A DNA stretch of 64,000 nt from a virus (Duplodnaviria > Caudoviricetes), in the IMG/VR virus record IMGVR_UViG_642791618_000001, positions 1 to 64,000 of that record. The stretch is one strand, 5' to 3'. Positions 23,589 to 41,050 of this stretch are shown here, piece by piece (the stretch's first letter is position 1; each line of letters starts with the position of its first letter). The position numbers and the translations under genes were made by a program. The notes beneath the pieces were generated by a model. It did not search any database and had not been told where the DNA came from. It saw only the letters and a program-made list of their open reading frames with translations.

Positions 23589-24158
23589 ATGAGCTACCAA
23601 GCCGACGACTACTCCAAAAAGCAGACGATCAAGGACGCCTCCTACGCCCGCGACTACAAGGCCTGGCTTGCCACGCTCACGCCCGAGGAACGCTGGCGTG
23701 TGGCGGAGCTGGGCCTCGACGCCCCGCTGCTGCCCAAGGACGGCGGTGGCTTCCTCGACAAGGATGCTGCGGATTCGCCAATGGCCTCCGAGGCACCCGC
23801 GCCGATCCCCGAGGACGCGCCGCCGGAAGCCACTGCCGGGATTCTCGGGACCGAGGACGTCTGGGACGTTCTCCGCCGACTGGTTGGCCAGTTATTGGCC
23901 GAACGCAACGCGCGCCTCAGTCTCGAATGCCTCGCGCTGGTCAGCGGGCTTTCTTTTCTGGGCGACTCGATGACCGCAGTAGCCCGGCGCCACGGCGTCA
24001 CCCGCGCGGCGGTCTCAAAACGCTGCGTCGAACTGACCGAACATCTCAATCTCCTGCCTTCGCGCGCCATGCGCTCTTTGACAGCCCGCCGCGCCTATCG
24101 CGCGGCCCAGGTTTCCACCCGCACCCACTATGAACGATTTGGCCATCATCACTCCTAA
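23589..24158 (+). CDS. Hypothetical protein with C-terminal HTH
   Basis: SMTAVARRHGVTRAAVSKRC. Confidence 0.65.
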   Translation: MSYQADDYSKKQTIKDASYARDYKAWLATLTPEERWRVAELGLDAPLLPKDGGGFLDKDAADSPMASEAPAPIPEDAPPEATAGILGTEDVWDVLRRLVGQLLAERNARLSLECLALVSGLSFLGDSMTAVARRHGVTRAAVSKRCVELTEHLNLLPSRAMRSLTARRAYRAAQVSTRTHYERFGHHHS

Positions 24159-24795
24159 AGTCAGGATCACACCGCTGGGCCTCGATGTTCTAGAGGACCT
24201 CACGTTCGAGGAATGGAGTGAACTCGCTCCTCACCTCGGCCAGGCCGCCCGCTCCATCTCCTTCGTGATCGGCGACTGGCTGATCTATGGCGACCGCTTT
24301 GCCGTCCAGTTCCCGCTTCCCGGTTTCACCGAGAAACTGCCCCGGACGGAACCCGAGCGCTATGAGAAGGCGATGGTCAATACCACCCTGGATCGGGTCA
24401 CGCTGCGCAACTACGCTTACGTCGCCCGGAATGTTGGAAAGTCGTGCCGAAACGACTTCCTCTCGTTTGACCACCACCGCGCTCTTGCGTCGCTGGATGA
24501 GACCAGTCAGCGGCACTGGATTGCCACCGCTTTGGCCGAGATCGACGCCGGACGGCGCATGACCGTTCGCCGTTTCCGGCGCTCCATCGAGGCCGGGCGC
24601 GTCCTCGGTGTGGAGGAACTCTACACCGATACCGGCGACACGGGTCTAACCAATCACATTCCGTTCGTGAACGGTTTGGTAGGTTGGTGGGCGCGGATGC
24701 GCAAGGCCGGATGGCTCCGGACCGCGACCGCCGAAAAGCGCGCTGCACTCAAACGCGATCTTCAGCCAGTGGCCGACATCATTTCCGAACTATGA
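24130..24795 (+). CDS. Phage protein with LmbU-like N-terminal motif
   Basis: LTFEEW..L...SISFVIGDWLIYG; LSFDHHRALA. Confidence 0.55.
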   Translation: MNDLAIITPKVRITPLGLDVLEDLTFEEWSELAPHLGQAARSISFVIGDWLIYGDRFAVQFPLPGFTEKLPRTEPERYEKAMVNTTLDRVTLRNYAYVARNVGKSCRNDFLSFDHHRALASLDETSQRHWIATALAEIDAGRRMTVRRFRRSIEAGRVLGVEELYTDTGDTGLTNHIPFVNGLVGWWARMRKAGWLRTATAEKRAALKRDLQPVADIISEL

Positions 24796-25784: not shown

Positions 25785-25810
25785 AGTCAGAGCCCAACTT
25801 TACACCTTTT
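25778..25810 (+). terminator. Probable intrinsic terminator closing the replication operon; left arm tandemly duplicated
   Basis: GGTGTAAAGT-9 nt-ACTTTACACC followed by TTTT. An extra GGTGTAAAGTC copy lies at 25767-25777. Confidence 0.5.
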
Positions 25811-26077: not shown

Positions 26078-27250
26078 ATGTCACAGGCGGATTCTATTGG
26101 AGCCTTAACACTCAACCTGCTGGGACGCAAGTTTCGGCAGGGGCGGCCACTATTTGCTCCCCCGGCTCAGTCGGTGCGCAGTTATGGGGCCGCGTACGCC
26201 GAAATCTGGTTCCCATCTGGGGGATGCCACTTCGACGCGAAGGGCGAATGCACAATGTGCAATTATGGGCGTTCGAGGAAGGTCAGCGCCGCGACGATGA
26301 TTGAGGCGGTACGGGCGGGACTCGCCAGTCTGCCAATAATCCCAAAAACTTTATGGGTGAGTGCGTTCAATGTCTTGGACGATCGCGAAGTCTCCCCGGA
26401 AGCGCGCCGCGGTATTTTTGCCGTGCTCGAAACTACGCCGGTGGAGCGTGTGTTGCTCGAGACGCATCCGTTGAGTGTAACCACAGAGAAGATCCAAGAA
26501 TTGCAGGCTTTAATTCCTGGAAAATCCCTCGGCATCGAACTTGGGATTGAAACGATGGCAGATTTCGCGCGCAAGTGGTGTATAAACAAGCAACTTACGA
26601 AACAAGAGATTCGGCACGCGATCGCGACCATCCAGGCGGCGGGCGCAATTCCCTATGTAAATCTTTTAATCGGCACGCCTTTCCTCTCGGCGGCCGAATG
26701 CCTCCGCGAGACTCGGGCTTCCATTGAGGCCCTGTTGGCGCTCGGCGTCCGCGACATCTGTCTTTTTCCCACCCATGTCAAAGAATTCACAGTCGTCGAG
26801 CAACTTGCCCGCCTCAACCTTTACCAACCACTTCCGCTGTGGGCACTGGTAGAGTTGCTCGTAAGCGTGCCTCCCGAGACCAGATGTAGTCTTTACTACG
26901 CTTGGGTGACCGATGTCGACCATCCCGGAAAGCCGGTCTCCATCCCCCCGCGCACAGGAGCCGAGGTCTACGCCGACGTCGTCTCTTTGCTTTATGCGTA
27001 CTTGGCGACGCGTGACGACGAGCAGATCGCGAGACTCGCTGCTTTACGAACGCCGTGCCGTGATGAGTTTTGCACCCGCCTCGCGCAGAAGCCCGCTTCG
27101 CCGCTGCCGCAACGCATTCTGGAAGGGGTCGAGGCACTTTGCGGAAGTGCCTTGCCTGGTCACTTCGAACGCTACAAGCAGGAAATCATTCAGGAAATTA
27201 CGAATGACTGGGAAATCGCGTGCCAAGAAACGCACCATCAACTATGTTAA
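26078..27250 (+). CDS. Radical SAM enzyme, RaSEA/TIGR01210-like (copy 1)
   Basis: CX7CX2C motif GCHFDAKGECTMCNY; IELGIET; LYQPLPLWALVELL. Confidence 0.8.
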   Translation: MSQADSIGALTLNLLGRKFRQGRPLFAPPAQSVRSYGAAYAEIWFPSGGCHFDAKGECTMCNYGRSRKVSAATMIEAVRAGLASLPIIPKTLWVSAFNVLDDREVSPEARRGIFAVLETTPVERVLLETHPLSVTTEKIQELQALIPGKSLGIELGIETMADFARKWCINKQLTKQEIRHAIATIQAAGAIPYVNLLIGTPFLSAAECLRETRASIEALLALGVRDICLFPTHVKEFTVVEQLARLNLYQPLPLWALVELLVSVPPETRCSLYYAWVTDVDHPGKPVSIPPRTGAEVYADVVSLLYAYLATRDDEQIARLAALRTPCRDEFCTRLAQKPASPLPQRILEGVEALCGSALPGHFERYKQEIIQEITNDWEIACQETHHQLC

Positions 27251-27690
27251 CAATGCGCTCAGCCGCCGAACACGAGGTTCCGACACTGCATCGGCTCGGT
27301 CTGTCGAGCTTTCAAAATCGGGATCGTTTCGATTGGGGTTGGACTGAGGAGTATTTGCAGTACCTGCTGAGCACTTCAAGCGGGTTCCTCCACGTGGCGG
27401 AGGTTGCCGGAGAACCGCAGATCGTTGGTTTGCATTGCGGTGTCTGGAACTACCCGGAATGCCGGGAGGACCAGTGCCGCTTTTATTGGCTGTACATCGA
27501 CAGCCGATTTCGCCGGCGCGGAATCGGAACACAGTTGATTCAGTATTCGCTAGCGCGCGCCGCAGAAAGAGGCAAGCGGAGCGCCATCGTGGGAATATGG
27601 GGTTCGGATGAGCCGGCGAGGCAGGTCGTTGAGCACCTCGGTTTTCAGCAAGTGGAAACGTTGAATCTGATGCGTCTCACGCTGGATTAA
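27244..27690 (+). CDS. GNAT N-acetyltransferase
   Basis: LYIDSRFRRRGIGTQL; A...Y..LGF-type end. Confidence 0.85.
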   Translation: MLTMRSAAEHEVPTLHRLGLSSFQNRDRFDWGWTEEYLQYLLSTSSGFLHVAEVAGEPQIVGLHCGVWNYPECREDQCRFYWLYIDSRFRRRGIGTQLIQYSLARAAERGKRSAIVGIWGSDEPARQVVEHLGFQQVETLNLMRLTLD

Positions 27691-27738
27691 ACGAGTTGGA
27701 GACAATAGGCTGCTTGTCTTCCACCAATCTTTTCCCAA

Positions 27739-28695
27739 GTGAGTTCTACATCCGGCCCATCCCCAATTTTGATCGCGGAAACCCCGCTGCACGCCGCGGA
27801 AAATTATCACCCGCCGGGAAACTTGTTTGTGAAGCTCGAGGGCGAGCAGCCTACGGGCAGCATCAAGCATCGTGCGGCAGTTTTCATGCTAGAAGCAACT
27901 CGCCGCGAACTGCAAGATGCCAAACTGGAGCTCATCGAGTCGACCTCTGGCAATCTCGGTGTTGCGCTCGGCTCGCTTGCACCTCATTACGGATACGAAC
28001 TTCTCTGCATTGTGGACCAGTTGATTCCGTCCTCGAAACTCGATAGGCTGCAGCGGGTCGCAAAAATTCAGAGTGTTCCGGCGACCGGTCATTCCGATGC
28101 GCGTGCCGCCCGTATTGCTTTGGCGGAGGAGCTAAGCCATCGCCCGGGCTATTTTTGGGTCAACCAGTATGCCAGCGAATCCAACCGGCGCGCGCATCTC
28201 GAATCGACCGGGCCAGAGCTCTCGCGTCAGGTCGGAGCTTCATTGAGGTGGCTCGTCTGTTCCATCGGCTCGGGCGGCACGGCCTGCGGTTTGGCCGCTT
28301 GGTTCGCTCGCCAGAATCCCGCCGTCTCCGTGGTTGCCGTGGAACCTTGGGGGTCCACCATTTTCGGAACGCACGCGGCACCTTACCTCTCCGTCGGAGC
28401 GGGCTTGCACGAACCGAGCGCCATCGTGAAGCGGTGGGGCAGTCCGCTGGCAGCTCATGCGCAGGTACCGGATTCTGCGGCCATCTCCGAGGTTAAGCGT
28501 TTCCAGGAACTCGAAGGAATCGCCCTTGGCATTACCTCCGGCGCTTGTCTAGCCATCGCCCGGCAGCTGGCCGCTTCGCACCCGGGGGACATGGTCGTCG
28601 CGCTCTCGGCCGATTACGGAACGGCTTATCGCGATATCATCGACGCCGGCCAAATCATCGACCGCTATCCCTTCCCCATAAACTCACTCAAATAG
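27739..28695 (+). CDS. PLP-dependent cysteine-synthase-family enzyme, SbnA-like
   Basis: KLEGEQPTGSIKHR (PLP Lys), IESTSGNLGVAL, WVNQY, IGSGGT. Confidence 0.85.
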   Translation: MSSTSGPSPILIAETPLHAAENYHPPGNLFVKLEGEQPTGSIKHRAAVFMLEATRRELQDAKLELIESTSGNLGVALGSLAPHYGYELLCIVDQLIPSSKLDRLQRVAKIQSVPATGHSDARAARIALAEELSHRPGYFWVNQYASESNRRAHLESTGPELSRQVGASLRWLVCSIGSGGTACGLAAWFARQNPAVSVVAVEPWGSTIFGTHAAPYLSVGAGLHEPSAIVKRWGSPLAAHAQVPDSAAISEVKRFQELEGIALGITSGACLAIARQLAASHPGDMVVALSADYGTAYRDIIDAGQIIDRYPFPINSLK

Positions 28696-30962
28696 TGCGC
28701 CCGCCGTCCACCGATCAACTTTCCGTCACGGGGGTACGACTTCACAACCTGAAGAGCGTTTCTGTCTCGATTCCACATTTTCGGCATACCGTCTGCACCG
28801 GTGTCTCGGGTTGCGGCAAGAGTTCCTTAGTTTTCGACTGCATTTACGCCCTGTGCGAATACGAGTTGCTGCAGTCGCTTTCCACATACGCTCGCGGCGC
28901 CATCCCACTGCCTGTCGTGCCGGACGTTGAGCACGCAAGCGGGTTGCTCCCACCGGTTGTAATCGATCAAGCGGACTTGGGACGAAACCCGCGGTCAACC
29001 ATCGGTACTTCTACGGAAGCCTACACGTTTCTACGGCTTCTTTTCGCCCGTGCCGCCGTGCCGGTGCTCGACGCCAGTGCGTTCTCCTTCAATTCTCCCG
29101 AAGGAGCGTGTCCGGCTTGCCGTGGGCTCGGCCAGATTTTGACGCCAGATCCGGAACGCCTTTTCGATCTCTCCAAATCGCTCGGCGAAGGCGCCATCCG
29201 ACACCGCGCGTGGAAGGTTGGAGGCCGGTACTGGAACATCATCAAAGCCACAGAGTTTTTTGAGATGGACGCTCCTCTCGGTCAGTGGCCCAAGGAAAAG
29301 CTCGATCACCTTATGCACGCGGCCCCGGCCGAAGTTGCCAACCGTGTGCCCGGATTCGTTCAACGGTTTACCTTTGAGGGGGTGGTTGAACGCCTCCGCG
29401 AGCGGCTCGCCGACGATCGCGGACTCGATTCGGCGGACTACGACGCGCAGTTCTTCACAACACAGTGGTGCGCGACCTGCGGGGGAACAAGGCTCCAGCA
29501 GAGGGCGCTGGCCTGCCGTCTGAATGGACTCAATATCGCCGATGCAGCGGGGCTTGCTGTTCCAGAACTGAAGAACTTCGTCCGCAGCCTGGAGATGAGC
29601 ACCCTCGCCACCGTCGTCGATTCGCTAAGTCGCATCCTGGAAAACCTGGAGATGGTGGAACTCAGTTACCTCACCTTGGATCGCCCTATTACCACCGTTT
29701 CCGGTGGCGAAATGCAGCGGATCAAGATTGCGCGGGAGCTGGGTTCCCGTTTGATGGGCATACTCTATATTCTCGATGAGCCTTCGAGGGGTCTTCACGC
29801 CAAGAACGTCGAGGCGGTGAATTCGATAATCACCAAACTCAAAGAGCGGGGGAATACGATCCTGAGTGTCGAGCACAACCGCGCGGTCGTGGAGTTGGCT
29901 GATAACATCGTCGAACTCGGTCCTGGCGCCGGCTCGCGGGGTGGCCAAATCACCGAGACGGGAACTCCAGCGGATTTCAAAAACAGCAGCGGGCCGACGG
30001 GCAGGCTCCTATCTGCGGCGAAGCAGCACATCTCACCGCCCCCGCCGAAAGCGTTTACTGAGTGGCACTTTTTTAGCGATTTGCGGCGCAATAACTTGAA
30101 GATTGAGAAACTCAAAATTCCGCGCGCGGCACTCACTTGCCTCGTGGGGGTTTCTGGCGCAGGAAAATCGTCACTCCTGGAGGAGATGCAGTTACGCGAT
30201 CCCGCTAGCGTGCGCGTGGCTCAGCGGCAGATCGGAGCGTCCGTGCGCTCGAACGTCTGCACCTATCTCAATTTTTTCGACGAAATTCGCAATCTGTTCG
30301 CCAAGAAAGCAAATGCGTCCGCAAGCCTTTTCGCGTTCAACAGTGACGGCGCTTGTCCCGAGTGCGGCGGACGCGGCAGCATCACTCTCGATCTCCACTT
30401 TCTGGGCAGCGCAATGGCACCCTGTCGCACCTGCAATGGAAAACGCTACCGGGCCGAAGTCCTTGGGTATACTTGGCAGGACCGCAACATCTCCGAAGTC
30501 TTGGAACTTCCTGTAGAGGAGGCCGCCACTTTTTTCCGGGAAGGGAAGAAAATCCGCAGCGCGCTGGAGTTGCTCTTGGGATGTGGCCTGGGCTATATCC
30601 GGCTTGGGCAGTCGCTGGACACCTTTTCCGGCGGCGAACTGCAAAGAGTGAAGTTGATTTATGGTCTGAACGATCCCACTGCTCTCTATCTGCTTGATGA
30701 GCCGTCGCGCGGGTTGCATCCGGACGACATCGAACGCATCGTCTCTTTGCTACGTACGCTCACTGCTCGCGGCAAGACCGTGGTTGCCTCGGAACACTCG
30801 TTGGATCTGGTTGCTCGCGCAGACTGGGTGGTGGAATTGGGACCCGGGGCAGCCAATGCCGGCGGGAAGGTGATCGCTGCTGGCACGGTTCGAGAGATCA
30901 TAAGAGCGACGACAAGCATCACCGCGCAATATCTTAAGTCCTATGTCAGACCTGGAACTTGA
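28695..30962 (+). CDS. Short UvrA paralogue (about 755 aa, DrrC/class II type)
   Basis: Two ABC modules (GVSGCGKSS and GVSGAGKSS; SGGEMQR and SGGELQR; LDEPSRGLH twice) with Zn-finger CxxC pairs. GTG start overlaps the previous TAG. Confidence 0.88.
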   Translation: MRPPSTDQLSVTGVRLHNLKSVSVSIPHFRHTVCTGVSGCGKSSLVFDCIYALCEYELLQSLSTYARGAIPLPVVPDVEHASGLLPPVVIDQADLGRNPRSTIGTSTEAYTFLRLLFARAAVPVLDASAFSFNSPEGACPACRGLGQILTPDPERLFDLSKSLGEGAIRHRAWKVGGRYWNIIKATEFFEMDAPLGQWPKEKLDHLMHAAPAEVANRVPGFVQRFTFEGVVERLRERLADDRGLDSADYDAQFFTTQWCATCGGTRLQQRALACRLNGLNIADAAGLAVPELKNFVRSLEMSTLATVVDSLSRILENLEMVELSYLTLDRPITTVSGGEMQRIKIARELGSRLMGILYILDEPSRGLHAKNVEAVNSIITKLKERGNTILSVEHNRAVVELADNIVELGPGAGSRGGQITETGTPADFKNSSGPTGRLLSAAKQHISPPPPKAFTEWHFFSDLRRNNLKIEKLKIPRAALTCLVGVSGAGKSSLLEEMQLRDPASVRVAQRQIGASVRSNVCTYLNFFDEIRNLFAKKANASASLFAFNSDGACPECGGRGSITLDLHFLGSAMAPCRTCNGKRYRAEVLGYTWQDRNISEVLELPVEEAATFFREGKKIRSALELLLGCGLGYIRLGQSLDTFSGGELQRVKLIYGLNDPTALYLLDEPSRGLHPDDIERIVSLLRTLTARGKTVVASEHSLDLVARADWVVELGPGAANAGGKVIAAGTVREIIRATTSITAQYLKSYVRPGT

Positions 30963-31755
30963 GGGCTCGCCGGCAGTGGCTCTGGCCGACTACGATTCGA
31001 TTGCGCGCGTGTACGATCTCTGGGCCTCTTGCGATCCAGCTTCCAAGCCGTGCTGGGATTTCTATCGCAGGGAAGTGACGCGTCATGGTGGAGTTTGCCT
31101 CGAAGTCGGCGTGGGAACCGGTGCTGTCATGCTTGGGGCGGGTCCTACCGTCGCTCACTATTACGGGATCGATCTTTCCCGCAGCATGCTCGCAGAACTG
31201 GAAACAAAACGGGCTAGCCTGCCTCCTCTCCCTTTCTCCTACACACTCATCCATGGCGACGTTCGACAAATCCGGCTGAGCGGCCCCCCGCCAACGCTAG
31301 CGATTGTTCCCTTTCGCACTGTGGGGCATTTTCTGACTGCAGACTCTAGGATAGCTCTGTTGCGCCACTTACGGGAAATCTGTGCGCCGGGAGCACGCTG
31401 CATCCTCGATCACTACAAGTTTAACCTGAAGTGGGCTCAGCAGCACGATCGCGTTACCCGATGGATGGGCGAGGGAACCATCAATGGCCAAACTTTCGTA
31501 CTCTCGGACACGTATGCTTATGATTTCGCGCGCCGCGAGATGGAATGTCTGCTCTGCGTGGAGGAGATCGCCAGGCATGGGACGGTGGTGAACAAGCGAT
31601 ACAGCGCGTTTCGTTTTTCGTGGCTCGAAGACGACGAAGTCTATCGCTACGCGGAAATAGCGGGGTGGCGGGTCGAGCAACGGTGGGGTGACTTTGAGTA
31701 TTCCGATTTCTCCGGCGACGCGAAAGACCAGGTCTGGCTCTTACGTGCGCCATGA
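30943..31755 (+). CDS. Class I SAM-dependent methyltransferase
   Basis: CLEVGVGTG, GIDLSRSML, GDVR. Confidence 0.88.
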   Translation: MSDLELEGSPAVALADYDSIARVYDLWASCDPASKPCWDFYRREVTRHGGVCLEVGVGTGAVMLGAGPTVAHYYGIDLSRSMLAELETKRASLPPLPFSYTLIHGDVRQIRLSGPPPTLAIVPFRTVGHFLTADSRIALLRHLREICAPGARCILDHYKFNLKWAQQHDRVTRWMGEGTINGQTFVLSDTYAYDFARREMECLLCVEEIARHGTVVNKRYSAFRFSWLEDDEVYRYAEIAGWRVEQRWGDFEYSDFSGDAKDQVWLLRAP

Positions 31756-32663
31756 GGCCGAACGATTGCTACTCGCTCGCCCGTACATCGGCCCGGAGTT
31801 CCACATTCCTGTCCCTGCTAGCGCATGCAACTGGCTTGCCTGGAGCAGCCGTTTGGACAGGATACCTGGCTTCGTTGAGTCTCGATCTGGATCTCCCTCG
31901 GCGCTGGCTTGCCTCCTGCGTGCCCTATCTCGATCTACTTTTACAGGCCATGGCCTACATGCCTTCCGGCGCGTCCGTTGGCGAGGTCGAGTCGGGGCAG
32001 ATCGATGATTTGGCCCGTGGCTTTTCGACCGGCGAACACCTCATTCTCGGTCCCTTGGACAGAAGTTCCTTGTGCGGACGACCGGCGCCTTTGCTATGGG
32101 AAGGCGCGCCAACTTTTGTGCAAATCATAGGGTGCGAAGAAAATACGGGCGCGATGATCCTTCGCCTACCGGGGACGCATTCGCTTTGCAGCTTGTCCGC
32201 AGAGGCATTGGTAGCGCCGCCGGGAATGCGGAGCGCGTGGTTTGCTGCCACCCCGCTTGGCCTACAGGCTTGCGAAGAGCACCTCCGACGCCTTCTGTCC
32301 TCCTGCCGTTTGGAGGTAGTTTGCCTTGCGGATCTGGCACGGTGGATGCGTGCGCTGTGCGAACGAATTGCCGGGTGTCCGCTAACCTCGACGGAAAGGC
32401 ATTGCCTTCGGGCTGCTCTTCGGGCTCTACAGGAGTGTCTGTGCGATGCTACTCTGTTTGCGCAGCGGCTCCAAAAGGTGGCGCAGTTTCTGCCGCCTGC
32501 CGAGCACGCATTCCTCATCGAACGGGCTGTATCAGCGATGCACCTGCTCGCACGCGCTCCGTCCGTCCTTGTAGGCTTCGACGTAAATCCAGCGTCCTGG
32601 CTGGAGGAGCTTGGGCGCGTGCTGGCGACGACGACGGTGGTGAGACTGGCACCCAAACAATAA
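31752..32663 (+). CDS. Hypothetical protein, probable degenerate BtrH-like/papain-fold paralogue of 38216-39151
   Basis: N-terminal NDCY and LILGPLDRSSL resemble YGCH and LVGPLDMGLL of the other gene. Confidence 0.45.
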   Translation: MRPNDCYSLARTSARSSTFLSLLAHATGLPGAAVWTGYLASLSLDLDLPRRWLASCVPYLDLLLQAMAYMPSGASVGEVESGQIDDLARGFSTGEHLILGPLDRSSLCGRPAPLLWEGAPTFVQIIGCEENTGAMILRLPGTHSLCSLSAEALVAPPGMRSAWFAATPLGLQACEEHLRRLLSSCRLEVVCLADLARWMRALCERIAGCPLTSTERHCLRAALRALQECLCDATLFAQRLQKVAQFLPPAEHAFLIERAVSAMHLLARAPSVLVGFDVNPASWLEELGRVLATTTVVRLAPKQ

Positions 32664-32664
32664 T

Positions 32665-33282
32665 ATGCCAATTTCCCATGCAAACGTCCTGTTCGGACTG
32701 GATTGCGCCAGCGCACCTGTGCGCGGTTCCGTTCCGGCCGAAAACCTGCTGTTGAAGCTCAATCCTGCGCTGCTTCCGGAAAGCGAACCTGCGGCCATAA
32801 TTATCGCTGCCGAGGCACCGATACTGTCCGATGCGACAATCTCCTACCAGACACTCGTGCATCTGCGGCAGCCCCGCGCTTCCTCACTTGTTTTTCTCAC
32901 GAGCGCCGGTGAAACGCTCGCGATGGCGCTCCTCGCTGCGAGCCTCACACTTGATGGTGCCGAAGCCGGTGCTTTTGTGCTGGCCTACATTCTTGAAAGC
33001 GTCTCCCCCGCTCCTGTCGGCGCGCGGGATTACGAGGCGTTCGCTTTCCTGATCCATCGGGTTCCCCCGCCGGACTGCGCCGTGTTGGTGGCGGAACTTA
33101 AGGAAGGCACGTCCAAGAGTTTCGCCCGTGAGGTTCTTTCCGCGGCGGCACTGCAGCGGATTGTCGAGCATGCCCGTGCGGCTCGGCCTCTCAGGCAAAC
33201 CACGCTGCTAATCGGTCGCGCTCCCGGGTTGGACGGGGAGCAAAAATGTCATTTGCTGCGCCTACATGAGAAAGAAATGTGA
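32665..33282 (+). CDS. Hypothetical protein, possibly a degenerate ketosynthase/thiolase-fold fragment
   Basis: Coupled ORF. SAGETLAMALL..SLTLDGAEAGA weakly recalls KS N-terminal-like proteins. Confidence 0.4.
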   Translation: MPISHANVLFGLDCASAPVRGSVPAENLLLKLNPALLPESEPAAIIIAAEAPILSDATISYQTLVHLRQPRASSLVFLTSAGETLAMALLAASLTLDGAEAGAFVLAYILESVSPAPVGARDYEAFAFLIHRVPPPDCAVLVAELKEGTSKSFAREVLSAAALQRIVEHARAARPLRQTTLLIGRAPGLDGEQKCHLLRLHEKEM

Positions 33283-34447
33283 AGCTTTCTGGCAACGATG
33301 GGCAGCCGAGCCGGGGAACTTGTCTGCCACGCTCGAAACGCCGAGGTATTTCTATTCGGGCGAACTGCTCACCCTCGCTTGGCACGCCCTGCACTCGAGT
33401 CTGCCCGCGGACGCGCAACTGCTGTACTCGCTGAAGGCCAACCCGCATCCGACGATCGTACGCTACTTTGCCGAGCACGGTGCGCTTTTCGATGTGGCCA
33501 GCCGTGGGGAAATGGAACTGCTCCTGGCGACCCAGGGCTCGCTGCAGCGGGCGGTATGGATCAGCCCGTGCAAAAGGGAAGCAGACTATCTCTGGGCGGT
33601 GCAACACGGCCTAGGCGCATCCGTGATCGATTCCAGAGAGGAAATAGGCACCGTGCGCCGGGTTGCGGCGACCCAGCCAGACACCATGCCCAGCTATCTG
33701 CTACGCGTTCAGCGACGCGCGGCTTCCGCGGGGACTTCCCTCTGGGCGGACTCGCAGTTCGGTGTCACTTTGGATGAGGCAATCGAGTTTACGCACACCC
33801 TGCGCCGGGACGGGATCCAGATCGCCGGGTTGCACGGCTATTTTGCCTCAAACCTTTTCGCCGAACAGGAGATTGCCCAAAATACCCAGGACTTGATGGC
33901 GCAGGCGCTCACCTGGCAGGCGTCTACTGGCACCTCGATGCGTGTCCTTGACGTCGGAGGAGGGTTTGGCTGGCCGCTTGGCGTTGAGGACGGCGAGCTT
34001 TCGTTACCGAGACTCCGGGACTGCCTAGCCCCCCTGGCCGCGGAGTTTTCCCCAGGCACTGCATTGTGGTTCGAATCGGGCCGTTTTCTCACCGCCGGCG
34101 CGGGTGTGCTCGTGCTCACCGTGATGAGCGTAAAAGAGCGCCCCGGCACGACCTCCGTCGTGCTAGACGGCGGAATGAATATCTTCGGCCTTCCCTCGAT
34201 GCGCCTGGGATTTCGTCCGCTGACGGTGATTCTTCTCGCGCGCGAGTGGGCTGGTCCCCTGCAGCCGCACACGCTTTTCGGCCCCTTGTGCACCCCGGGG
34301 GACAAATTTTGCGAGAAAGTGCTGCTGCCACCGCTTAAGGCCGGTGACCGCTTGGCTATTCTGCATGCGGGTGCTTACGGAGCCACGGCGGGGCGCTCTT
34401 CATTTCTCTCTTTCCCGGACGCGCACGAAACTGTACTTGCCGGTTGA
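33266..34447 (+). CDS. Fold-type III PLP decarboxylase (LysA/ODC/BtrK family)
   Basis: YSLKANPH, DVASRGE, DVGGGFG, FESGRFL, GPLCTPGD, AGAYG. Confidence 0.88.
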   Translation: MRKKCEAFWQRWAAEPGNLSATLETPRYFYSGELLTLAWHALHSSLPADAQLLYSLKANPHPTIVRYFAEHGALFDVASRGEMELLLATQGSLQRAVWISPCKREADYLWAVQHGLGASVIDSREEIGTVRRVAATQPDTMPSYLLRVQRRAASAGTSLWADSQFGVTLDEAIEFTHTLRRDGIQIAGLHGYFASNLFAEQEIAQNTQDLMAQALTWQASTGTSMRVLDVGGGFGWPLGVEDGELSLPRLRDCLAPLAAEFSPGTALWFESGRFLTAGAGVLVLTVMSVKERPGTTSVVLDGGMNIFGLPSMRLGFRPLTVILLAREWAGPLQPHTLFGPLCTPGDKFCEKVLLPPLKAGDRLAILHAGAYGATAGRSSFLSFPDAHETVLAG

Positions 34448-34456
34448 CCACATCCC

Positions 34457-34714
34457 ATGAACGAAGTCACCGAAATCGAAGAGTTGAAGCGGCTGCTTGC
34501 GCAACTTGCCCCAGGGAATCAACCCGCGATCCTCTCCCTTGCGCCCGAAGACAAGCTGCCGTTGGACTCGATGGGAATGGTTAGTTTTGCGGTCGCCTTA
34601 GAAGATTATTATGGGCTCAGATTCCGGCCCGATGTCCACGATCTCGTTTCAATTTTTTCCAACCTGCGGTCGCTTGACGAATTCATCGCTCGCGAACGCC
34701 AGGCCGCCACATGA
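34457..34714 (+). CDS. Acyl/aminoacyl carrier protein
   Basis: 85 aa, acidic, LPLDSMGMVSFAVALED phosphopantetheine Ser motif. Confidence 0.88.
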   Translation: MNEVTEIEELKRLLAQLAPGNQPAILSLAPEDKLPLDSMGMVSFAVALEDYYGLRFRPDVHDLVSIFSNLRSLDEFIARERQAAT

Positions 34715-35889
34715 GAGACACCAATCCTTTTCTCTCCGCGGTAATGCGGAAGGTGCGAAGCGGCCGTCCCCGGCTAGAGACCGCCGAACCTTTCTTCACG
34801 CGGGTCGAGCCGGTCCCCCGGGGAAACTACGTCGAGATTTGGTTCCTGACCTCGGGTTGCACTTGGGATGCCCGCGGCGGATGCACCATGTGCAATTATG
34901 GCGCCGGTCCTCAAAACATTGCGCCACTGTTCATGCAGCAAGCCGTGGAGCAGGCGCTCGCGGTGCTTCCAGTCGCTCCTGCCGAGCTCATGGTATCGCC
35001 GTCCGGTGGCATGCTGGATGACCGCGAAGTTCCGCCGAAAGCTCGCCAAGGAATTTACGCCGCGATGGCGAAGAGCACTGCCGATCTGCTGCTGATCGAG
35101 ACGCGCTCGGAGACGGCTACCGAGCGCCATCTCGACGAGTACCGCGCGACCTTTCCACACCGATCCCTAGCCATTGAGTTTGGGTTGGAATCGGCCTCTT
35201 CGTGGATCTCGACGTTCTGTGTGAATAAGGGCGCCGAGCCGGACCGCTTTGCCGCCGCCGCCGCCGCCGCACATCGGCGCGAGATCGGCGTCTATGCAAA
35301 CGTCTGTATCGGCACGGCCTTTCTCTCGGCGCGTGAGTCTGTTGAAGACGCGGTGCAGACCGCGCGGTGGGCCTTCGCGCACGGAGGCGAGCGGGTGGTC
35401 CTTTTCCCTCTGCACATCAAGCGATTCACACTTCTGGAGGTCTTGCACCATGCCGGCCTATATCCGCGCGTCTCTCTCTGGTCGCTGGTAGAATGCCTGC
35501 GCCGCTTGGGTTCGGAAAACAGTCACCGGGTCGAGATCGCGTGGTACAAATCGTACTACACGCAAAAATCGAAGATGACCTTCTCCCCTACGACCTGCGA
35601 CATCTGCCTGCCGACCGTCCTGACGCTCATGGACACCTATCGCCAAACGCAGGATTTCGCCGTTATCGAGAAGCTCGCAGCCTTTTCCTGCGCTTGCCAC
35701 GAGGAATGGAGAGCCGCCATCGAAGCGGAGCCTTCGTCGTCGCTGCCGGAACGCGTCCTGCGCTCGTACGAATTTCTAGACGATCACCTCGGCGTTGGTG
35801 CGCGTGATGAACTTGCGAGCGTTTCGCGTCGGCTTTTTGTAGAAGAACCCTTCACCTATGCTACTTGGAAGGCCCATGATCTCGCTTGA
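34711..35889 (+). CDS. Radical SAM enzyme, RaSEA/TIGR01210-like (copy 2)
   Basis: CX7CX2C motif GCTWDARGGCTMCNY; IEFGLES; LYPRVSLWSLVECL. Confidence 0.8.
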   Translation: MRDTNPFLSAVMRKVRSGRPRLETAEPFFTRVEPVPRGNYVEIWFLTSGCTWDARGGCTMCNYGAGPQNIAPLFMQQAVEQALAVLPVAPAELMVSPSGGMLDDREVPPKARQGIYAAMAKSTADLLLIETRSETATERHLDEYRATFPHRSLAIEFGLESASSWISTFCVNKGAEPDRFAAAAAAAHRREIGVYANVCIGTAFLSARESVEDAVQTARWAFAHGGERVVLFPLHIKRFTLLEVLHHAGLYPRVSLWSLVECLRRLGSENSHRVEIAWYKSYYTQKSKMTFSPTTCDICLPTVLTLMDTYRQTQDFAVIEKLAAFSCACHEEWRAAIEAEPSSSLPERVLRSYEFLDDHLGVGARDELASVSRRLFVEEPFTYATWKAHDLA

Positions 35890-36748
35890 AGTCGCGCAGA
35901 ATTTTCTCCGCCGGAACGTTCCTTCCGGCAGACCTATGCTTGTCTTCCTTTCCGGCGGAGTCGACTCCGATGTCGTGGCCCGTCTGGCTGTCGCCACCTT
36001 CGGCGCCGCGCGCGTCGTCGGCGCCACCTGCTTGCAAGCCGCGCAAGATCCCGCTCATCCAGAGAATGCCGCGCGGCTCGCCCGCACTTTGGGCATCGAA
36101 TACGCGCAATTGAACTTGGGGCAGATGCCAGCCGAACTCGCCGCCGAGCTGGCGCGGGCCTCTCCCCGATTCGACGATGGGGAAAACGGCTGGCTGATCG
36201 AGGCGAGAGCCAAGTGCGCTTTGCGAACCTCCATCGCCGCACTCTACCACGATCGGGGCTACTACATCTTAGGGTGTGGCAATCGCACAGAATTGCGCTT
36301 GGGGTTCTTCATGCCACTTGGGGACGGAATTTGCCACGCCGCCCCAATCCTGCACTTGTTCAAAACCGAGGTGTATGTCCTTGCCCAGGCATTGGGCACC
36401 GACTCCCAAGTGATCGAGCAACCGCCGTCTGCGGGTTTTTGGCCCGGTCAGTCGGACTTGGAGGATATCGCCTACTGGATGCTCCATGGTGGCCCCATCG
36501 TCCGGCCCGTGCATTTTTCGGAAGAAGATATCGCGGAGGTCGAACGGATGCGCCGCGTCCTGAGCTTTGCAGGGCTCGACGCGGCCCTTAAGGAATACGA
36601 GCGCGGCTCTGCTCCCGCCTTTGCGGCGTCCGTCTCAGGTCTGGAGCTCAAGATCGTGGAACGTGTTTACCGCGTCGCCGAGGCAGCGCGGGCGCTCAAG
36701 CTAATTCCCATGTGTGCGTCGCTTCTCTCGGAAGCTGCGCCGACATGA
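35876..36748 (+). CDS. NAD+ synthetase (NadE)-like ATP-dependent amidotransferase
   Basis: FLSGGVDS PP-loop, GNRTE, GDG, PILHLFKTEV, PPSAG. Canonical TKYGD reads MPLGD here. Confidence 0.82.
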   Translation: MISLEVAQNFLRRNVPSGRPMLVFLSGGVDSDVVARLAVATFGAARVVGATCLQAAQDPAHPENAARLARTLGIEYAQLNLGQMPAELAAELARASPRFDDGENGWLIEARAKCALRTSIAALYHDRGYYILGCGNRTELRLGFFMPLGDGICHAAPILHLFKTEVYVLAQALGTDSQVIEQPPSAGFWPGQSDLEDIAYWMLHGGPIVRPVHFSEEDIAEVERMRRVLSFAGLDAALKEYERGSAPAFAASVSGLELKIVERVYRVAEAARALKLIPMCASLLSEAAPT

Positions 36749-38241
36749 AGACGCTGGCGCTCCTTCTCCGAGCCGCGAGCGCTGACGCCGGATCCGCCGT
36801 AGCCCTGCTTTCGGACCGGCATCGGCTCTCTTATGCAGATACGTGGCGGCAAGTGGAGCAACTCGGTTGCGAGTTGCAGGCTGCGGGACTGACGCCTGGG
36901 AAGCGTGTAATCGCGATCACATCCCTGACCGTCGAGACTGTGCTCATGTTGGTCGCCATTTCGTGGACTGGCGCCATCATCATTCCGGCCGTCGCCTCGG
37001 GGCCTGGAGCCGATCTGAACGGCGTTAGGCAGTTCAGTCCTTGTCATTTGATCGGCACAGCCGAGCATCTCGAACCCTTCGATGTAGAGCTTTGTGCAGA
37101 ATTCAGGGTGGGTGAAAAGCGTTACTTCCTAGGCCGGTGGGAAGACGACCAAGATGGTGATGCACCGACCCGCGACGAAACCATCTTCCTCACCTCGGGC
37201 ACCACGGATGGCCCGCTGGGTGTGGTCTGTTCGCAAGCCCAAATCGCTTTCTGCCAAGCGGCAATCCAACAACGGCTCCGTTACGTTCCACAAGATCGCG
37301 TGTTGATCGGCGGCCCACTTTCATTCGATTACCACTACTATCAACTGCTGCTCGCCTTTGCCGCGCGCGCGACGTTAGTCGTCTGCGATCAGGTGCAAAA
37401 CCCCCTGGCAATGGCCGACCGAATTCTCCGGATGAAAGTCACCGTCCTGCCGTTGATCCCATACAGCTTCCGCCTGCTGCTAAAGTCGCGCATGCTGGAA
37501 AGGGGCGACTATTCCTGCGTGCGCCTGCTCTCTGCCACCGGAGAGGTGTGGCCCAAGCGCGAAATCGAACTCCTTGCGCAAGCGTTTCCCGCTGCCAGCG
37601 TATTTCCAATGTATGGGCTCACGGAGTGCAAGCGGGTCAGTATCCTCGATCAGCGGCTCAATCCGGAGTTACTCGGGGCGGTGGGCTTTCCGCTCACAGG
37701 GACACGAGTGCAGATTTTTGACCCCAACCACAGCGCATTGTCCACTGGCGACGTTGGCGAGATCGCCGTTGAAGGACCTCATTTGGCTGATGGGTACTTT
37801 CAGCGTCCCGAGGCCACATGCAGACGTTTTCATCAGCACCCGGATGGGAGACGCTTCCTGCTCACGGGCGACCAAGGCTACCTGGACGAGCGGGGCGCTC
37901 TTTGGTTCGTCGGGCGTGATACCCAACTGATCAAATACCGGGGCATTCGCACCTCCGCGGCGGCGATTGAAACCGCCTTCCTCCAGTGCCCGAATGTCCA
38001 GCGCGCCGTCGCGATGAATGTTCTCACGCGGTCCGGAGAAAAGGTCGCCGTGATGATCGAACTGGCCGATCAGAGCGCTGCCGGCGACACGAAGATCGCG
38101 GAGACTGTGCGAAGTCTGTGGCCCTTACACGGGCAGCCGGATTACTTTGAATTCGGCTTCATTCCTCTCCTTGCCAATGGCAAACCAGCCCGCGCCAAGG
38201 TTGCCACTTTACTCCATGAACGGTGCACCCGAATCGAATGA
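36745..38241 (+). CDS. AMP-binding adenylation enzyme (acyl-CoA/acyl-ACP ligase family)
   Basis: LTSGTTDGP, YGLTE, LTGDQG, GRDTQLIKYRG, PLLANGK. Confidence 0.88.
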   Translation: MKTLALLLRAASADAGSAVALLSDRHRLSYADTWRQVEQLGCELQAAGLTPGKRVIAITSLTVETVLMLVAISWTGAIIIPAVASGPGADLNGVRQFSPCHLIGTAEHLEPFDVELCAEFRVGEKRYFLGRWEDDQDGDAPTRDETIFLTSGTTDGPLGVVCSQAQIAFCQAAIQQRLRYVPQDRVLIGGPLSFDYHYYQLLLAFAARATLVVCDQVQNPLAMADRILRMKVTVLPLIPYSFRLLLKSRMLERGDYSCVRLLSATGEVWPKREIELLAQAFPAASVFPMYGLTECKRVSILDQRLNPELLGAVGFPLTGTRVQIFDPNHSALSTGDVGEIAVEGPHLADGYFQRPEATCRRFHQHPDGRRFLLTGDQGYLDERGALWFVGRDTQLIKYRGIRTSAAAIETAFLQCPNVQRAVAMNVLTRSGEKVAVMIELADQSAAGDTKIAETVRSLWPLHGQPDYFEFGFIPLLANGKPARAKVATLLHERCTRIE

Positions 38242-39151
38242 ACGGAACCCGTGGATCGAAGGAGCTCTGTCGCTCCGTCAACTCTCGTATGGATGCCACG
38301 TTCTGGCAGCCTTTCAGCTCATGCCGGAACTCGAGGAATTGCTGAGCGCTACCGAACTAGCCGGTCTTACGGGACTCTGTTTTGGTTTGTCTCACGTCGA
38401 CAGAGATCGCGCGCGTCAACTCGTTCCTAGTGTTTCTCCTCTTCCGGCATTGTCCAGCGCCTTGGGTGCCTTGGGAATTGCCTCGTCGCTGAAACACTGG
38501 GGCGAACAGGAGGGCGATGCCGCGTACCGCGATCTGGCCGTGCAGACCGAACGCCGTCCCACGTTGGTCGGTCCGTTGGATATGGGACTGCTTTTCCACA
38601 ATCCGTCGGCGCTGGTTTACCGTGGTCTTGATCACATGCTCGTCGCGCTCGAGGTGCACGAACACGAGATACTCGTAACCGACAGTGAAGGATTTCCCGC
38701 CGTCGTCATTCCACGGGAAGAATTCTTGACGGCGTGGCGGGCTATCTCCGTTCCTGAATCGCATCGCTCTTTCAATAGTCTATGCGTCGACAGAGTTTCG
38801 CCGTTTAGGGATGAGGAGCGTGAACGTGCGCACCTCCGGGAGGCGCTGCTTGCGCAGCGCCCTGCTTCCAGTGCGCACGTCGCGGCCATAATACAGCGGA
38901 TCAGCGCCAGCCAATCTGAGGACGAGGGCAGTGGATTGGAACTCAATCTGGCGGCTCTCTTGGAGAGAGCGTCATGCACGTTGCAGATTACCTATTATTT
39001 CTCCGACGGAGATTGGGCTACCATCTCTGAAGCTCTGCTCGAATTGGTCGCGACGCTCGGCGGCATTCTCGGCCCGCCGCTGGCTCCAGGGCGCCGCATG
39101 GCCGCCCTCAAGGGTGTGGCGCGCTATTTCGACCGCCTTTGCGCAGTATAA
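38216..39151 (+). CDS. Papain-fold protein, BtrH N-terminal-like (putative ACP-dependent acyltransferase); start uncertain
   Basis: Candidate triad Cys (YGCH), His (GLDHML), Asp (VTDSEG); GPLDMGLL motif. Confidence 0.55.
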   Translation: MNGAPESNERNPWIEGALSLRQLSYGCHVLAAFQLMPELEELLSATELAGLTGLCFGLSHVDRDRARQLVPSVSPLPALSSALGALGIASSLKHWGEQEGDAAYRDLAVQTERRPTLVGPLDMGLLFHNPSALVYRGLDHMLVALEVHEHEILVTDSEGFPAVVIPREEFLTAWRAISVPESHRSFNSLCVDRVSPFRDEERERAHLREALLAQRPASSAHVAAIIQRISASQSEDEGSGLELNLAALLERASCTLQITYYFSDGDWATISEALLELVATLGGILGPPLAPGRRMAALKGVARYFDRLCAV

Positions 39152-39154
39152 CCC

Positions 39155-40090
39155 ATGCAGATTATTGCGATCACCTACGCCTTGGGTTCAGAGCAAATTC
39201 CCGTTGAAAAGCTCGGACTTCAGGCCGCACTTCCTCCGGCGGCGATTGCTCAAATGCTGGACAATGGTTTGCAGACGGTTCCCGTTTGGCCTGGTGAAAA
39301 GCGCCCCCTGGCTTTGCAAAGCTTTATCGCCAGCTTTGGACGCGAACAATGCGAAGCGCTTCATTCCCTCAAGGCGGTGATCGTGGCCAAAACTCACTTG
39401 GGAGCGCACACGTTGCGAGCCGAGGATGCTCGCGATTGGTTTTCCAGCCGGGAGGGCCATCCGGCGCTCGCAATGGAGGTTACGGGCCAGCCCTGCGCCA
39501 TCCTGCACAGTGGCGTCGAACTCGCACGAAGGCTTCTTGCGCGATCGAATGGAGAAGAACCCAGCTGCGTCTTGCTGGTCGGTTGCGACGTTGCGGAAAA
39601 CGCTGCAGAGCGGTGCTATTTTGGAAGCGCCATGGGGGATGCCTGTGTAGCGATGCTATTGAGCATGCGGGCGGGAGGACCAGCCATACTGGGATCCCAC
39701 GTCGAAACGAACATTGTAGCGCCCCTCGGAGAGCAAAGCGATCCGAACGAGATTGCTCGATTCCGCCAGCATAATGTATTTTGGATTCGCGAGGCCATTT
39801 TCAGAGGGTTGGCGAAAGCGGATCGCTCGCTTGATACCCACTGCATCATACTTCCTCACACTCCAAACAGGCACATCGTCGAAGCCATCCGCCAGTCACT
39901 GGCTCTGCCGCACGACCGCATCATTTCGGAGTTCATGGCAACGACTGGTCATTGCTGCTCGAACGACTCATTCATCACCTTTGCCCGCCTCGTGGCCCAA
40001 GGTAGACTCCAGAAATACTCCACAGCAGTGCTTGTGAATGGCGGATTTGGTGGTACTCGTGGCGTGACGGTGATCGAGCCCTCATCATGA
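39155..40090 (+). CDS. KAS III/FabH-like condensing or acyl-transfer enzyme
   Basis: GQPCAILH (Cys), LPHTPN (His), TGHCCSND (His in place of the FabH Asn), NGGFG. Confidence 0.82.
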   Translation: MQIIAITYALGSEQIPVEKLGLQAALPPAAIAQMLDNGLQTVPVWPGEKRPLALQSFIASFGREQCEALHSLKAVIVAKTHLGAHTLRAEDARDWFSSREGHPALAMEVTGQPCAILHSGVELARRLLARSNGEEPSCVLLVGCDVAENAAERCYFGSAMGDACVAMLLSMRAGGPAILGSHVETNIVAPLGEQSDPNEIARFRQHNVFWIREAIFRGLAKADRSLDTHCIILPHTPNRHIVEAIRQSLALPHDRIISEFMATTGHCCSNDSFITFARLVAQGRLQKYSTAVLVNGGFGGTRGVTVIEPSS

Positions 40091-41028
40091 AGCTTCCGCT
40101 CAACATCCACCTCTACATCACCCCGTATTGCCCGGTGCCATGCCGGCACTGCTATTATGAGGCGTTGCGGCCCGGGGCACCTTACAGTGGACAGCTTTCG
40201 GCAGAGCAAATGGCCAGCGTGATTGTGGCGCTGGATACGGAATACGACATGGACGTTCATTTGGAGGGAGGGGAAGCATTCCTGAGCGACGACCTGGCCG
40301 AGCTTCTGGCACGCGTGCCGACGGACACATGGCAAAAGATCACCATCACAACCAGCGGCGCCCTAAAGCCGAAATTCGACGTCAAACTCCTGCGCTCGGT
40401 CGGAGATTTGCGCGTGTCGGTGGAAGGAATGAACGCCGAGCAGCATTTCACCTTACGAGGAATGCAGATCGATCGCACCGAGAGCTTCATGCTCGATCTC
40501 CAGCGCGATGGCGTTCGCTTTTCCATCCGCTCGACCCTGTTCACGGAGAACGTGCAGCATTGGATGGGGCTTGCTCAATACGCCCGTCAATTGGGAGCTG
40601 CCCAATTGTCCTGGTATGAACTCCAACCGGTGGGCCGCGCGAACCAAACGGCCGAGCATGGCTTCCTGACCCCGCAACAGATCGATAGTTTTTTGGCCTC
40701 GCTCAGTGCGCAGAGAAGTTCGGACCTTCCGCTCCTGTGTCGCTTTCAGTTTCCTGAGCGGCGCGTGGAAGCCGTCGGCCAACGAACACGCTCATTGAGC
40801 GCCTCGGGTTGGCACGTGCGAAGCCTGCCCGATATCCCTAGCCTCACGATCAACCCCAATGGAGATATCGGCGTCAGTCCCTGGAAGATTACTGCTCAAC
40901 ATGTAGGCGACCGGTTCGGAAACGTGAGGGACTCGGGATGGTTGGAAAAGGTCCGAAAAGCTTACGGGGAAGGCAATCTACATGACGCCTCGCCGAGCAC
41001 CTCTAGGCTTCGCATCAGTTCCGATTAA
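40087..41028 (+). CDS. Radical SAM enzyme (canonical CX3CX2C)
   Basis: ITPYCPVPCRHCYY, GGEAFL, ITTSG. Confidence 0.85.
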   Translation: MKLPLNIHLYITPYCPVPCRHCYYEALRPGAPYSGQLSAEQMASVIVALDTEYDMDVHLEGGEAFLSDDLAELLARVPTDTWQKITITTSGALKPKFDVKLLRSVGDLRVSVEGMNAEQHFTLRGMQIDRTESFMLDLQRDGVRFSIRSTLFTENVQHWMGLAQYARQLGAAQLSWYELQPVGRANQTAEHGFLTPQQIDSFLASLSAQRSSDLPLLCRFQFPERRVEAVGQRTRSLSASGWHVRSLPDIPSLTINPNGDIGVSPWKITAQHVGDRFGNVRDSGWLEKVRKAYGEGNLHDASPSTSRLRISSD

Positions 41029-41050
41029 GACCTGCGCAAACCAAGATGGC

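Follow-up and report, generated by a model that had tools for sequence, protein, structure and literature searches.

Why does a prophage carry two radical S-adenosylmethionine (SAM) enzymes that resemble archaeal RaSEA? RaSEA (family TIGR01210) is the radical SAM partner of ArcS in the euryarchaeal synthesis of archaeosine. The question is raised by a stretch of 64,000 nucleotides (positions 1 to 64,000 of the IMG/VR virus record IMGVR_UViG_642791618_000001, hereafter the window), located on contig C60 of a 7.85 Mb host assembly that is 92% complete. It encodes two RaSEA-like proteins, which we call rSAM-A and rSAM-B. We find that they belong to an uncharacterised bacterial RaSEA-like subfamily, and that they lie inside a conserved, mobile gene cluster of thiotemplate type. 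The explanation that we favour, and to which we give somewhat better than even chances, is that the sixteen genes of this cluster form a carrier-protein pathway independent of non-ribosomal peptide synthetases (NRPS), of the 'non-canonical thiotemplate' type known from closthioamide and butirosin, with RaSEA-like paralogs and C-N transfer. Below, clades A to D are the RaSEA-like subgroups, and L- and P-numbers designate the compared loci and the compared proteins, respectively.

Sequences of the two RaSEA-like proteins

A reading of the window made from its sequence only had described two paralogs of about 390 residues, sharing three motifs and lying 8.6 kb apart in one operon. This description proved accurate for the proteins: the open reading frames (ORFs) of rSAM-A and rSAM-B encode 390 and 392 amino acids, their starts are 8,633 nt apart, and the two products align with 34% identity over 349 residues (BLASTP, E 6e-61), a paralogy far beyond chance. 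The EIWF..GC-x7-CTMCNY segment reads GGCHFDAKGECTMCNY in rSAM-A and SGCTWDARGGCTMCNY in rSAM-B, the E.G.E motif IELGIET and IEFGLES, and the LW.LVE motif LWALVEL and LWSLVEC, respectively. The three cysteines of GC-x7-C-x2-C are invariant in all 107 sequences compared, in every clade. The public gene calls for these proteins (P0121, 297 aa, for rSAM-A; P0001, 318 aa, for rSAM-B) begin downstream of the cysteine motif. Because homologs conserve the N-terminus, we preferred the full-length ORFs; the public versions do not contain CX7CX2C and would therefore be missed in motif-based mining for radical SAM enzymes. With Pfam, the Radical_SAM domain was barely detected in rSAM-A and not detected in rSAM-B.

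The two proteins differ in two places. rSAM-B has a C-terminal four-cysteine site of the form CX2C...CXC (TCDIC...CAC) and, following strand 2, SGG as its glycine-rich SAM-binding motif. Three of the four C-terminal cysteines are gone from rSAM-A, and the site is lost throughout clade A, in which the glycine motif has become S-AFN with a one-residue deletion, whereas RaSEA and clades B, C and D retain SGS/SGG. The resemblance to RaSEA that had been proposed for both proteins thus stands for the cysteine motif of each and for the C-terminal pattern of rSAM-B. rSAM-A is a derived copy that looks degenerate and, since clade A lost both motifs, may be catalytically altered or act as an accessory subunit.

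Relation to archaeal RaSEA

A search with the TIGR01210 hidden Markov model (HMM), which had been suggested as a check, gave a divided answer. TIGR01210 was the best NCBIfam family for both proteins (rSAM-A 115.4 bits, E 2.9e-33; rSAM-B 144.5 bits, E 4.1e-42), but both scores lie below its curated cut-off of 212.15 bits. Of 41 genomes sampled from the Methanomethylophilaceae phylum, 38 encode an archaeal RaSEA, with scores of 242-369 bits. In a profile search of the host assembly, rSAM-A and rSAM-B were the only TIGR01210-like genes, with the same scores as in the window. Our reference was a Methanomethylophilaceae protein that is a true RaSEA (L050:1462-2457, 333 bits). Its cysteine segment, GCCWVRQGGCTMCGY, has the GC-x7-C-x2-C spacing of rSAM-A and rSAM-B, and its C-terminus, CGEC...CGC, shows the CX2C...CXC pattern of rSAM-B. 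The alignment with this protein covered 318 residues for rSAM-B (29% identity, E 9e-32) and just 218 residues for rSAM-A (28% identity).

The AlphaFold (AF2) model of rSAM-B, with a predicted local distance difference test (pLDDT) of 93.7, points to a partial TIM-barrel radical SAM fold. When this model was submitted to Foldseek, Elp3 came first (E 2e-7, template modelling (TM) scores 0.44-0.52), followed by many other radical SAM enzymes, the radical SAM domain of Elp3 being the best solved fold. A PDB sequence search with rSAM-B returned nothing relevant, and no RaSEA was among the solved structures matched by this search or by Foldseek. The ESM Atlas has its own model of rSAM-B, which matched RaSEA-named clusters with TM scores of 0.79-0.84. 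Since family score, motif spacing, identity to the reference protein and structure match agree, the resemblance to RaSEA is real.

We placed the proteins in a FastTree phylogeny of 107 sequences, of which 14 were true RaSEA. The latter formed one clade (support 100), with a small archaeal paralog group next to it, and all bacterial proteins, rSAM-A and rSAM-B included, fell in a separate clade (support 99). Within the bacterial clade, subgroup B (49 rows, support 98) contains rSAM-B and subgroup A (11 rows, support 100) contains rSAM-A; subgroups C and D have 8 and 14 rows. Five relatives of rSAM-A were found by a word-based homolog search, an exhaustive search being needed for the rest. The whole bacterial group amounts to about 100 clusters at 50% identity (E 1e-30 or better). 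rSAM-A and rSAM-B are thus members of a bacterial sister group of RaSEA within the ELP3-like radical SAM subgroup, and not RaSEA itself, as the earlier idea of a bacterial subfamily had it. Neither protein matched PADLOC or PHROGs, and in a literature search of incomplete coverage we found no description of bacterial RaSEA-like enzymes or of the cassette presented below.

Three RaSEA-like paralogs were also seen in one archaeal genome, of Methanodesulfokora (G002; L042, L053 and L055), at 179-199 bits, none above the cut-off. In L042 the rSAM gene is followed, at a distance of 4 nt, by the start of a fold-III decarboxylase gene, and the link between the two kinds of enzyme may be old, since they adjoin in an archaeon.

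The setting had been described as outside any archaeosine context, and this was borne out. No que, tgt or arcS gene was found in the window, QueD and QueE not having been searched for. In the host, QueC is encoded on contig C56 and TGT on C32 and C52, and a search of the 92% complete genome for the ArcS domain DUF5591 (PF17884) gave no match; the only genomes with a match were three archaeal controls, each of which also has a true RaSEA. A true archaeosine function was rejected on the scores below the TIGR01210 cut-off, the clade placement and the missing ArcS partner. Contig C52 has a second TGT-family match (92810-93859, 465 bits), inside a 717-aa open frame that far exceeds the standard length of bacterial TGT.

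The gene array

Between 26078 and 41539 all genes lie on the + strand, with overlaps or gaps of less than 50 nt. The array comprises sixteen genes, from rSAM-A to a 185-aa protein. It contains no convincing internal terminator, the scan giving fewer sites than in shuffled sequence. With one strand, such spacing and no convincing terminator inside, a single operon, as had been proposed, is plausible. The features are as follows.

24130..24795, +, LmbU-family transcriptional regulator, 1.3 kb upstream of the cluster (NCBIfam NF038070, E 1.3e-22, below cut-off)
26078..27250, +, rSAM-A, RaSEA-like radical SAM enzyme of clade A (TIGR01210, 115.4 bits)
27220..27690, +, GNAT acetyltransferase, overlapping the end of rSAM-A (Pfam PF00583, E 3e-12)
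27739..28695, +, SbnA/cysteine-synthase-like pyridoxal phosphate (PLP) enzyme of fold II (PF00291, E 1.9e-47; TIGR03945, 181 bits, below cut-off)
28545..30962, +, short UvrA-like ABC ATPase (UvrA models, 618-627 bits, below the full-length cut-offs)
30943..31755, +, class I SAM methyltransferase (PF13649, E 1.7e-8)
31752..32663, +, 303-aa protein, function unassigned (hhalign to transacylase alignment A2, probability 55%, 48 columns)
32665..33282, +, 205-aa protein, function unassigned (no family match)
33266..34447, +, fold-III PLP decarboxylase, BtrK/CtaF/LysA-like (PF02784 and PF00278)
34457..34714, +, free-standing carrier protein, peptidyl or acyl (PCP/ACP), with a DSM serine site (NCBIfam NF006617, E 5.9e-7)
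34711..35889, +, rSAM-B, RaSEA-like radical SAM enzyme of core clade B (TIGR01210, 144.5 bits)
35858..36748, +, NadE-like PP-loop ATP-pyrophosphatase of the AANH superfamily, without glutaminase domain (PF02540, E 7.8e-32)
36712..38241, +, stand-alone adenylating (ANL) enzyme (PF00501, E 8e-45; TIGR01733, 186 bits, below cut-off)
38147..39151, +, CtaG/CcbD/AziU-like papain-fold enzyme, 334 aa (alignment A2; AF2 model; Foldseek)
39155..40090, +, KAS III-like protein with an atypical active-site region (PF08541, E 1.7e-11; sequence)
40087..41028, +, rSAM-C, canonical CX3CX2C radical SAM enzyme with an AhbD/NirJ-like core (PF04055, E 4e-9; TIGR04545, E 3.5e-15, far below cut-off)
40982..41539, +, 185-aa protein with faint GNAT similarity, end of the array (Pfam, E 0.03-0.16 only)

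Two of these ORFs probably start further downstream, the UvrA-like one near 28695 and the papain-fold one near 38234. rSAM-C is unrelated to the RaSEA-like pair. The 205-aa protein had no match in Pfam, NCBIfam, PHROG or PADLOC, and the ortholog of the 185-aa protein in L001 has a weak PF00583 match.

Partner enzymes and type of pathway

The genes around rSAM-B point to chemistry on a carrier protein. The stop codon of the carrier protein overlaps the start of rSAM-B, this arrangement is conserved, and a PP-binding domain was detected in orthologs of the carrier protein. The conserved arrangement makes a carrier-bound substrate plausible, one of the two substrates that had been suggested; for the other, a nucleoside, we found no support. 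The best solved relative of the decarboxylase was the L-glutamyl-[ACP] decarboxylase BtrK (110.6 bits, E 7e-31), with diaminopimelate decarboxylases close behind at 103.7 bits. In the NadE-like enzyme, SGGxDSD and one cysteine are invariant among 21 orthologs (alignment A3), and there is a weak match to LarE (E 6e-7). The best model for the ANL enzyme was an amino-acid adenylation domain, and the FD.. (A4) and NGK (A10) motifs are present.

A Cys-His-Asp set is invariant in the 334-aa enzyme (alignment A2). A PDB search with the profile of this alignment found nothing; with the AF2 model (38234-39148, pLDDT 85), the best Foldseek matches were AziU3/U2, CtaG and CcbD, over the full length. In Nocardia the 334-aa enzyme is fused to the ANL enzyme. 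We regard it, on the modelled fold, as a putative CtaG-like papain-fold transacylase. The 303-aa protein is a possible degenerate paralog of this transacylase, its positional equivalent in L026 matching alignment A2 with 93% probability.

A free-standing carrier protein and a papain-fold Cys-His-Asp enzyme are thus both present in the cluster. The 'non-canonical thiotemplate' logic has been worked out for closthioamide and butirosin (PMC7183216, PMC6772006), and the chemistry of CtaF and CtaG in the closthioamide pathway has been described (PMC7183216). A closthioamide cluster proper was rejected, the array having neither an ATP-grasp ligase nor a CtaC-type enzyme, and a pathway to a ribosomally synthesised and post-translationally modified peptide was likewise dismissed, as no precursor-like ORF was evident in 24800-26078.

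A cassette conserved across bacteria

We searched 185,579 species genomes for the motif GxC[TV]MCNYG and obtained 42 loci. About 12 of them have the full cassette (Nocardia, Azospirillum, Methylococcaceae, Bacteroides, Melioribacter, Vallitalea and some Lachnospiraceae), and Marichromatium has a syntenic locus (L008). A minimal cassette, found in about 17 Lachnospiraceae loci, consists of the decarboxylase, the carrier protein, a B-type rSAM enzyme, the NadE-like enzyme, the adenylating enzyme and the 334-aa protein. Synteny was counted around the B-type gene at 46 loci: the start of the NadE-like gene lies no more than 960 nt downstream in 32, and the decarboxylase ends 266-480 nt upstream of it in 25. 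In one protein (P0191), within a minimal cassette, the rSAM and NadE-like enzymes are fused in a single polypeptide. rSAM-B is the core enzyme of the cassette, which occurs across phyla.

In other cassettes, clade C and clade D paralogs replace clade A. Clade D and clade C paralogs form a tandem fusion in L005 (4564-6843) and adjacent, overlapping genes in L012 (4246-6659); these fused or overlapping genes suggest that the two act as a pair. Two-domain RaSEA-like proteins of 622-757 aa, likewise tandem fusions, were also seen (P0128, P0131, P0145). In other rSAM fusions the partner is a nitroreductase, a methyltransferase, or a segment made up of pentapeptide repeats and a nitroreductase. Nitroreductase fusions were seen in L004 (10001-13765), P0232 and P0262, once via pentapeptide repeats, and next to the L004 fusion are genes of a decarboxylase, NB-ARC/TPR proteins, BREX and a QueC-like ATP-pyrophosphatase.

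In the window, phage genes flank the cluster. Before it come those of a Sak4-like annealing protein (17144-18016), of a helicase (19448-20938) and of a primase (21340-23319); after it come those of the large terminase subunit (54670-55926) and of a portal protein (57106-58548). So placed, the whole cluster has the appearance of prophage cargo. Its G+C content is slightly lower. rSAM-B was not found in 24 genomes of the same genus and 16 of the same order; the cluster is carried in a prophage, is absent from the 40 relatives searched, and is mobile.

Other ORFs of the window lie outside the cluster. Two small ones between the LmbU-family regulator and rSAM-A (24973-25784) probably belong to the accessory genes of the phage; one resembles PurA (PF04845, E 5.7e-12), and the other looks, by eye only, like a DUF559/Vsr-type endonuclease. 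A convergent 210-aa ORF (41657-42289, - strand) had no match in Pfam (E up to 1) or PHROGs. A 348-aa ORF (51724-52770, - strand) matched phrog_842 (beta-glucosyl-HMC-alpha-glucosyltransferase, E 8.6e-12), a hint that the prophage may glycosylate modified DNA bases.

Candidate self-protection genes and probable target

UvrA proteins of the DrrC/Ecm16 type and pentapeptide proteins of the Qnr/McbG/AlbG type are known to shield producers from DNA-binding agents and gyrase poisons. A short UvrA is always present in the full cassettes, and the minimal cassettes of gut Lachnospiraceae have a pentapeptide-repeat protein in its place (L026, L071). By these precedents, the UvrA-like protein is a probable self-protection gene, and the end product is probably a small molecule directed against DNA or gyrase.

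Proposed pathway and alternatives

In the pathway that we propose, the ANL enzyme would load an amino acid onto the carrier protein, and the decarboxylase would trim the carrier-bound amino acid. The NadE-like ATP-pyrophosphatase would adenylate a carboxyl or carbonyl group and couple the amine of the carrier-bound amino acid to it. By means of a 5'-deoxyadenosyl radical, rSAM-B would then break the adduct's alkyl C-N bond, the nitrogen staying on the product. This couple-then-cleave order is modelled on that of ArcS and RaSEA. rSAM-A, paired with the GNAT protein, would catalyse a different step or act as an accessory subunit. C-N cleavage yielding an amidine or imine, which had been suggested from the sequence, would follow by analogy with RaSEA, and the analogy gains some weight because the pairing of rSAM-B with the NadE-like enzyme is conserved and, in one case, fused. 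For the couple-then-cleave step of these two enzymes specifically, our confidence is tentative and stays well below an even chance.

Several points weigh against this proposal. C-N cleavage would be deduced here from homology and gene linkage, and the self-protective role of the UvrA and pentapeptide proteins from the precedent of their families. Four residues of rSAM-B (E160, N197, H235 and K237) are conserved in the bacterial clades, as against A/G, Y, N and Q in RaSEA, so that the substrate, and possibly the reaction, differs from that of RaSEA. The single invariant cysteine of the NadE-like enzyme would also fit sulfur transfer. No ATP-grasp ligase was matched among the cluster proteins in Pfam or NCBIfam, and its lack counts since this ligase defines the closthioamide and butirosin pathways. 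Finally, clade A alone is without the four-cysteine site and the SGS motif, which weakens the case for two equivalent radical steps and makes the two sequential radical steps of the sequence-only reading doubtful.

The couple-then-cleave proposal can be extended. The NadE-like and RaSEA-like enzymes might form a general module, an amino-acid amine donor followed by a radical lyase, for carrier-bound intermediates; the prophage would use it to make a new antibiotic targeting DNA or gyrase, and the paralogs of clades A, C and D would repeat or vary the radical step. We hold this broader view to be speculative and on balance rather unlikely. If it were true, the nitrogen-installing module would be the first non-tRNA chemistry of the RaSEA/Elp3 subgroup.

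Sulfur insertion would explain part of the same evidence. The NadE-like enzyme and rSAM-B would then install a thioamide or thiocarboxylate on the carrier-bound chain in the manner of CtaC, the sulfur being supplied or relayed either by rSAM-B, at its four-cysteine site, or by the NadE-like enzyme, at its invariant cysteine, and both this cysteine and the weak LarE match agree with such a role. The closthioamide pathway, moreover, also has a CtaF-like decarboxylase, a PCP, a CtaI-like ANL enzyme and a CtaG-like transacylase, and its product is a gyrase inhibitor (PMC7183216), just as the minimal cassettes have a pentapeptide protein of the gyrase-protecting kind. However, CtaC belongs to a TtcA/TtuA-type branch with a [4Fe-4S]-binding cysteine motif (PMC6772006), whereas the protein found here is of NadE type with a single conserved cysteine. 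CtaC works without a radical SAM partner, and true RaSEA shares the four-cysteine site yet inserts no sulfur. Weighing both sides, we consider sulfur insertion unlikely.

In Elp3, a radical SAM domain and a GNAT/KAT domain form one protein, and rSAM-A with its GNAT neighbour could be seen as a split Elp3. The rSAM enzyme would take a hydrogen from an acyl thioester (an acyl-PCP, or an acyl-CoA on the GNAT protein), and the resulting carbon radical would join an unsaturated acceptor, giving C-C coupling. This is attractive for the rSAM-A/GNAT pair: the GNAT gene directly follows the rSAM-A-type gene in the window, L001 and L073, the PCP gene abuts rSAM-B, and Elp3 radical SAM domains are the best solved structural matches of rSAM-B. 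However, the clade A genes of L074 and L002 have no GNAT neighbour, the GNAT protein shows no specific similarity to the Elp3 KAT domain, rSAM-A is without the glycine SAM motif, and the sequences are much nearer RaSEA than Elp3. We judge C-C coupling improbable.

To our knowledge, all members of the RaSEA/Elp3/MnmL (YtqA) group with an assigned function act on tRNA. The weakest alternative takes this precedent further and supposes that the prophage hypermodifies bases of DNA or tRNA, its own or those of the host, the DNA being handled by the UvrA-like protein; the position of the cluster between phage replication and packaging genes, the defence genes next to some relatives (BREX, NB-ARC proteins, Cas5d) and the match of the UvrA-like protein to PADLOC mad3 (E 5e-59) fit, but the carrier protein, ANL enzyme, CtaG-like transacylase and KAS III-like protein are characteristic of small-molecule synthesis, the window has no base-exchange enzyme of TGT/DpdA type, the rSAM enzymes match neither PADLOC nor PHROGs, and the minimal Lachnospiraceae cassettes come with LytTR-type two-component regulators (L026) and pentapeptide-repeat proteins, all of which makes it very unlikely.

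The thiotemplate pathway with C-N transfer is therefore the reading that we retain. It ties the subfamily to carrier-protein chemistry and an ATP-pyrophosphatase, a testable entry into new radical chemistry, and it points to an undescribed natural-product family whose loci, in gut Lachnospiraceae, Nocardia and the prophage described here, carry protection genes of DNA or gyrase type. The minimal cassette is small enough for heterologous expression.

Comparison with known systems

RaSEA is the best-scoring family for both proteins and has the GC-x7-C-x2-C spacing in common with them. With rSAM-B it further shares the SG(S/G) motif, the CX2C...CXC site, the LWSLVE region and the predicted full-length fold (TM about 0.8), and each is partnered with a C-N bond-forming enzyme, ArcS there and the ATP-pyrophosphatase here. 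The proteins described here differ from RaSEA by their scores below the cut-off, their separate clade, the lack of an ArcS or ArcTGT partner, the presence of 2-3 paralogs per locus, the change of four conserved residues and, in rSAM-A, the loss of two motifs. Next to them lie genes for a carrier protein, a decarboxylase and an ATP-pyrophosphatase, and not for tRNA modification. Elp3 offers the best solved structural match of rSAM-B, and the rSAM-A and GNAT genes mimic its two domains; however, identity in the structural alignments is 12-16%, the GNAT protein here is separate and not Elp3-like by HMM, and there is no tRNA context.

Like the closthioamide and butirosin pathways, the cluster has a carrier protein that is free-standing, a PLP decarboxylase of fold III (BtrK/CtaF-like), a Cys-His-Asp transacylase of papain fold (CtaG/BtrH-like), an ANL loading enzyme that stands alone and an enzyme of the AANH superfamily. 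For closthioamide the likeness extends to the target, which is gyrase there, the cassette here having protection genes of gyrase or DNA type. The cluster differs from both in having no ATP-grasp ligase (CtaD/BtrJ), and from closthioamide in that its AANH enzyme is of NadE type, without the Fe-S motif of CtaC. Conversely, cta and btr have no counterparts of the RaSEA-like rSAM enzymes, the KAS III-like protein, the SbnA-like PLP enzyme or the third radical SAM enzyme.

A last parallel is provided by argininosuccinate synthetase and lyase, where an ATP-pyrophosphatase couples an amino-acid amine and a lyase then cuts. Here too a glutaminase-less PP-loop ATP-pyrophosphatase is closely linked, in one case by fusion, to an enzyme whose nearest relative breaks a C-N bond of an amino acid. 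In the cluster, however, the cutting would fall to a radical SAM protein, and the likeness is one of logic only.

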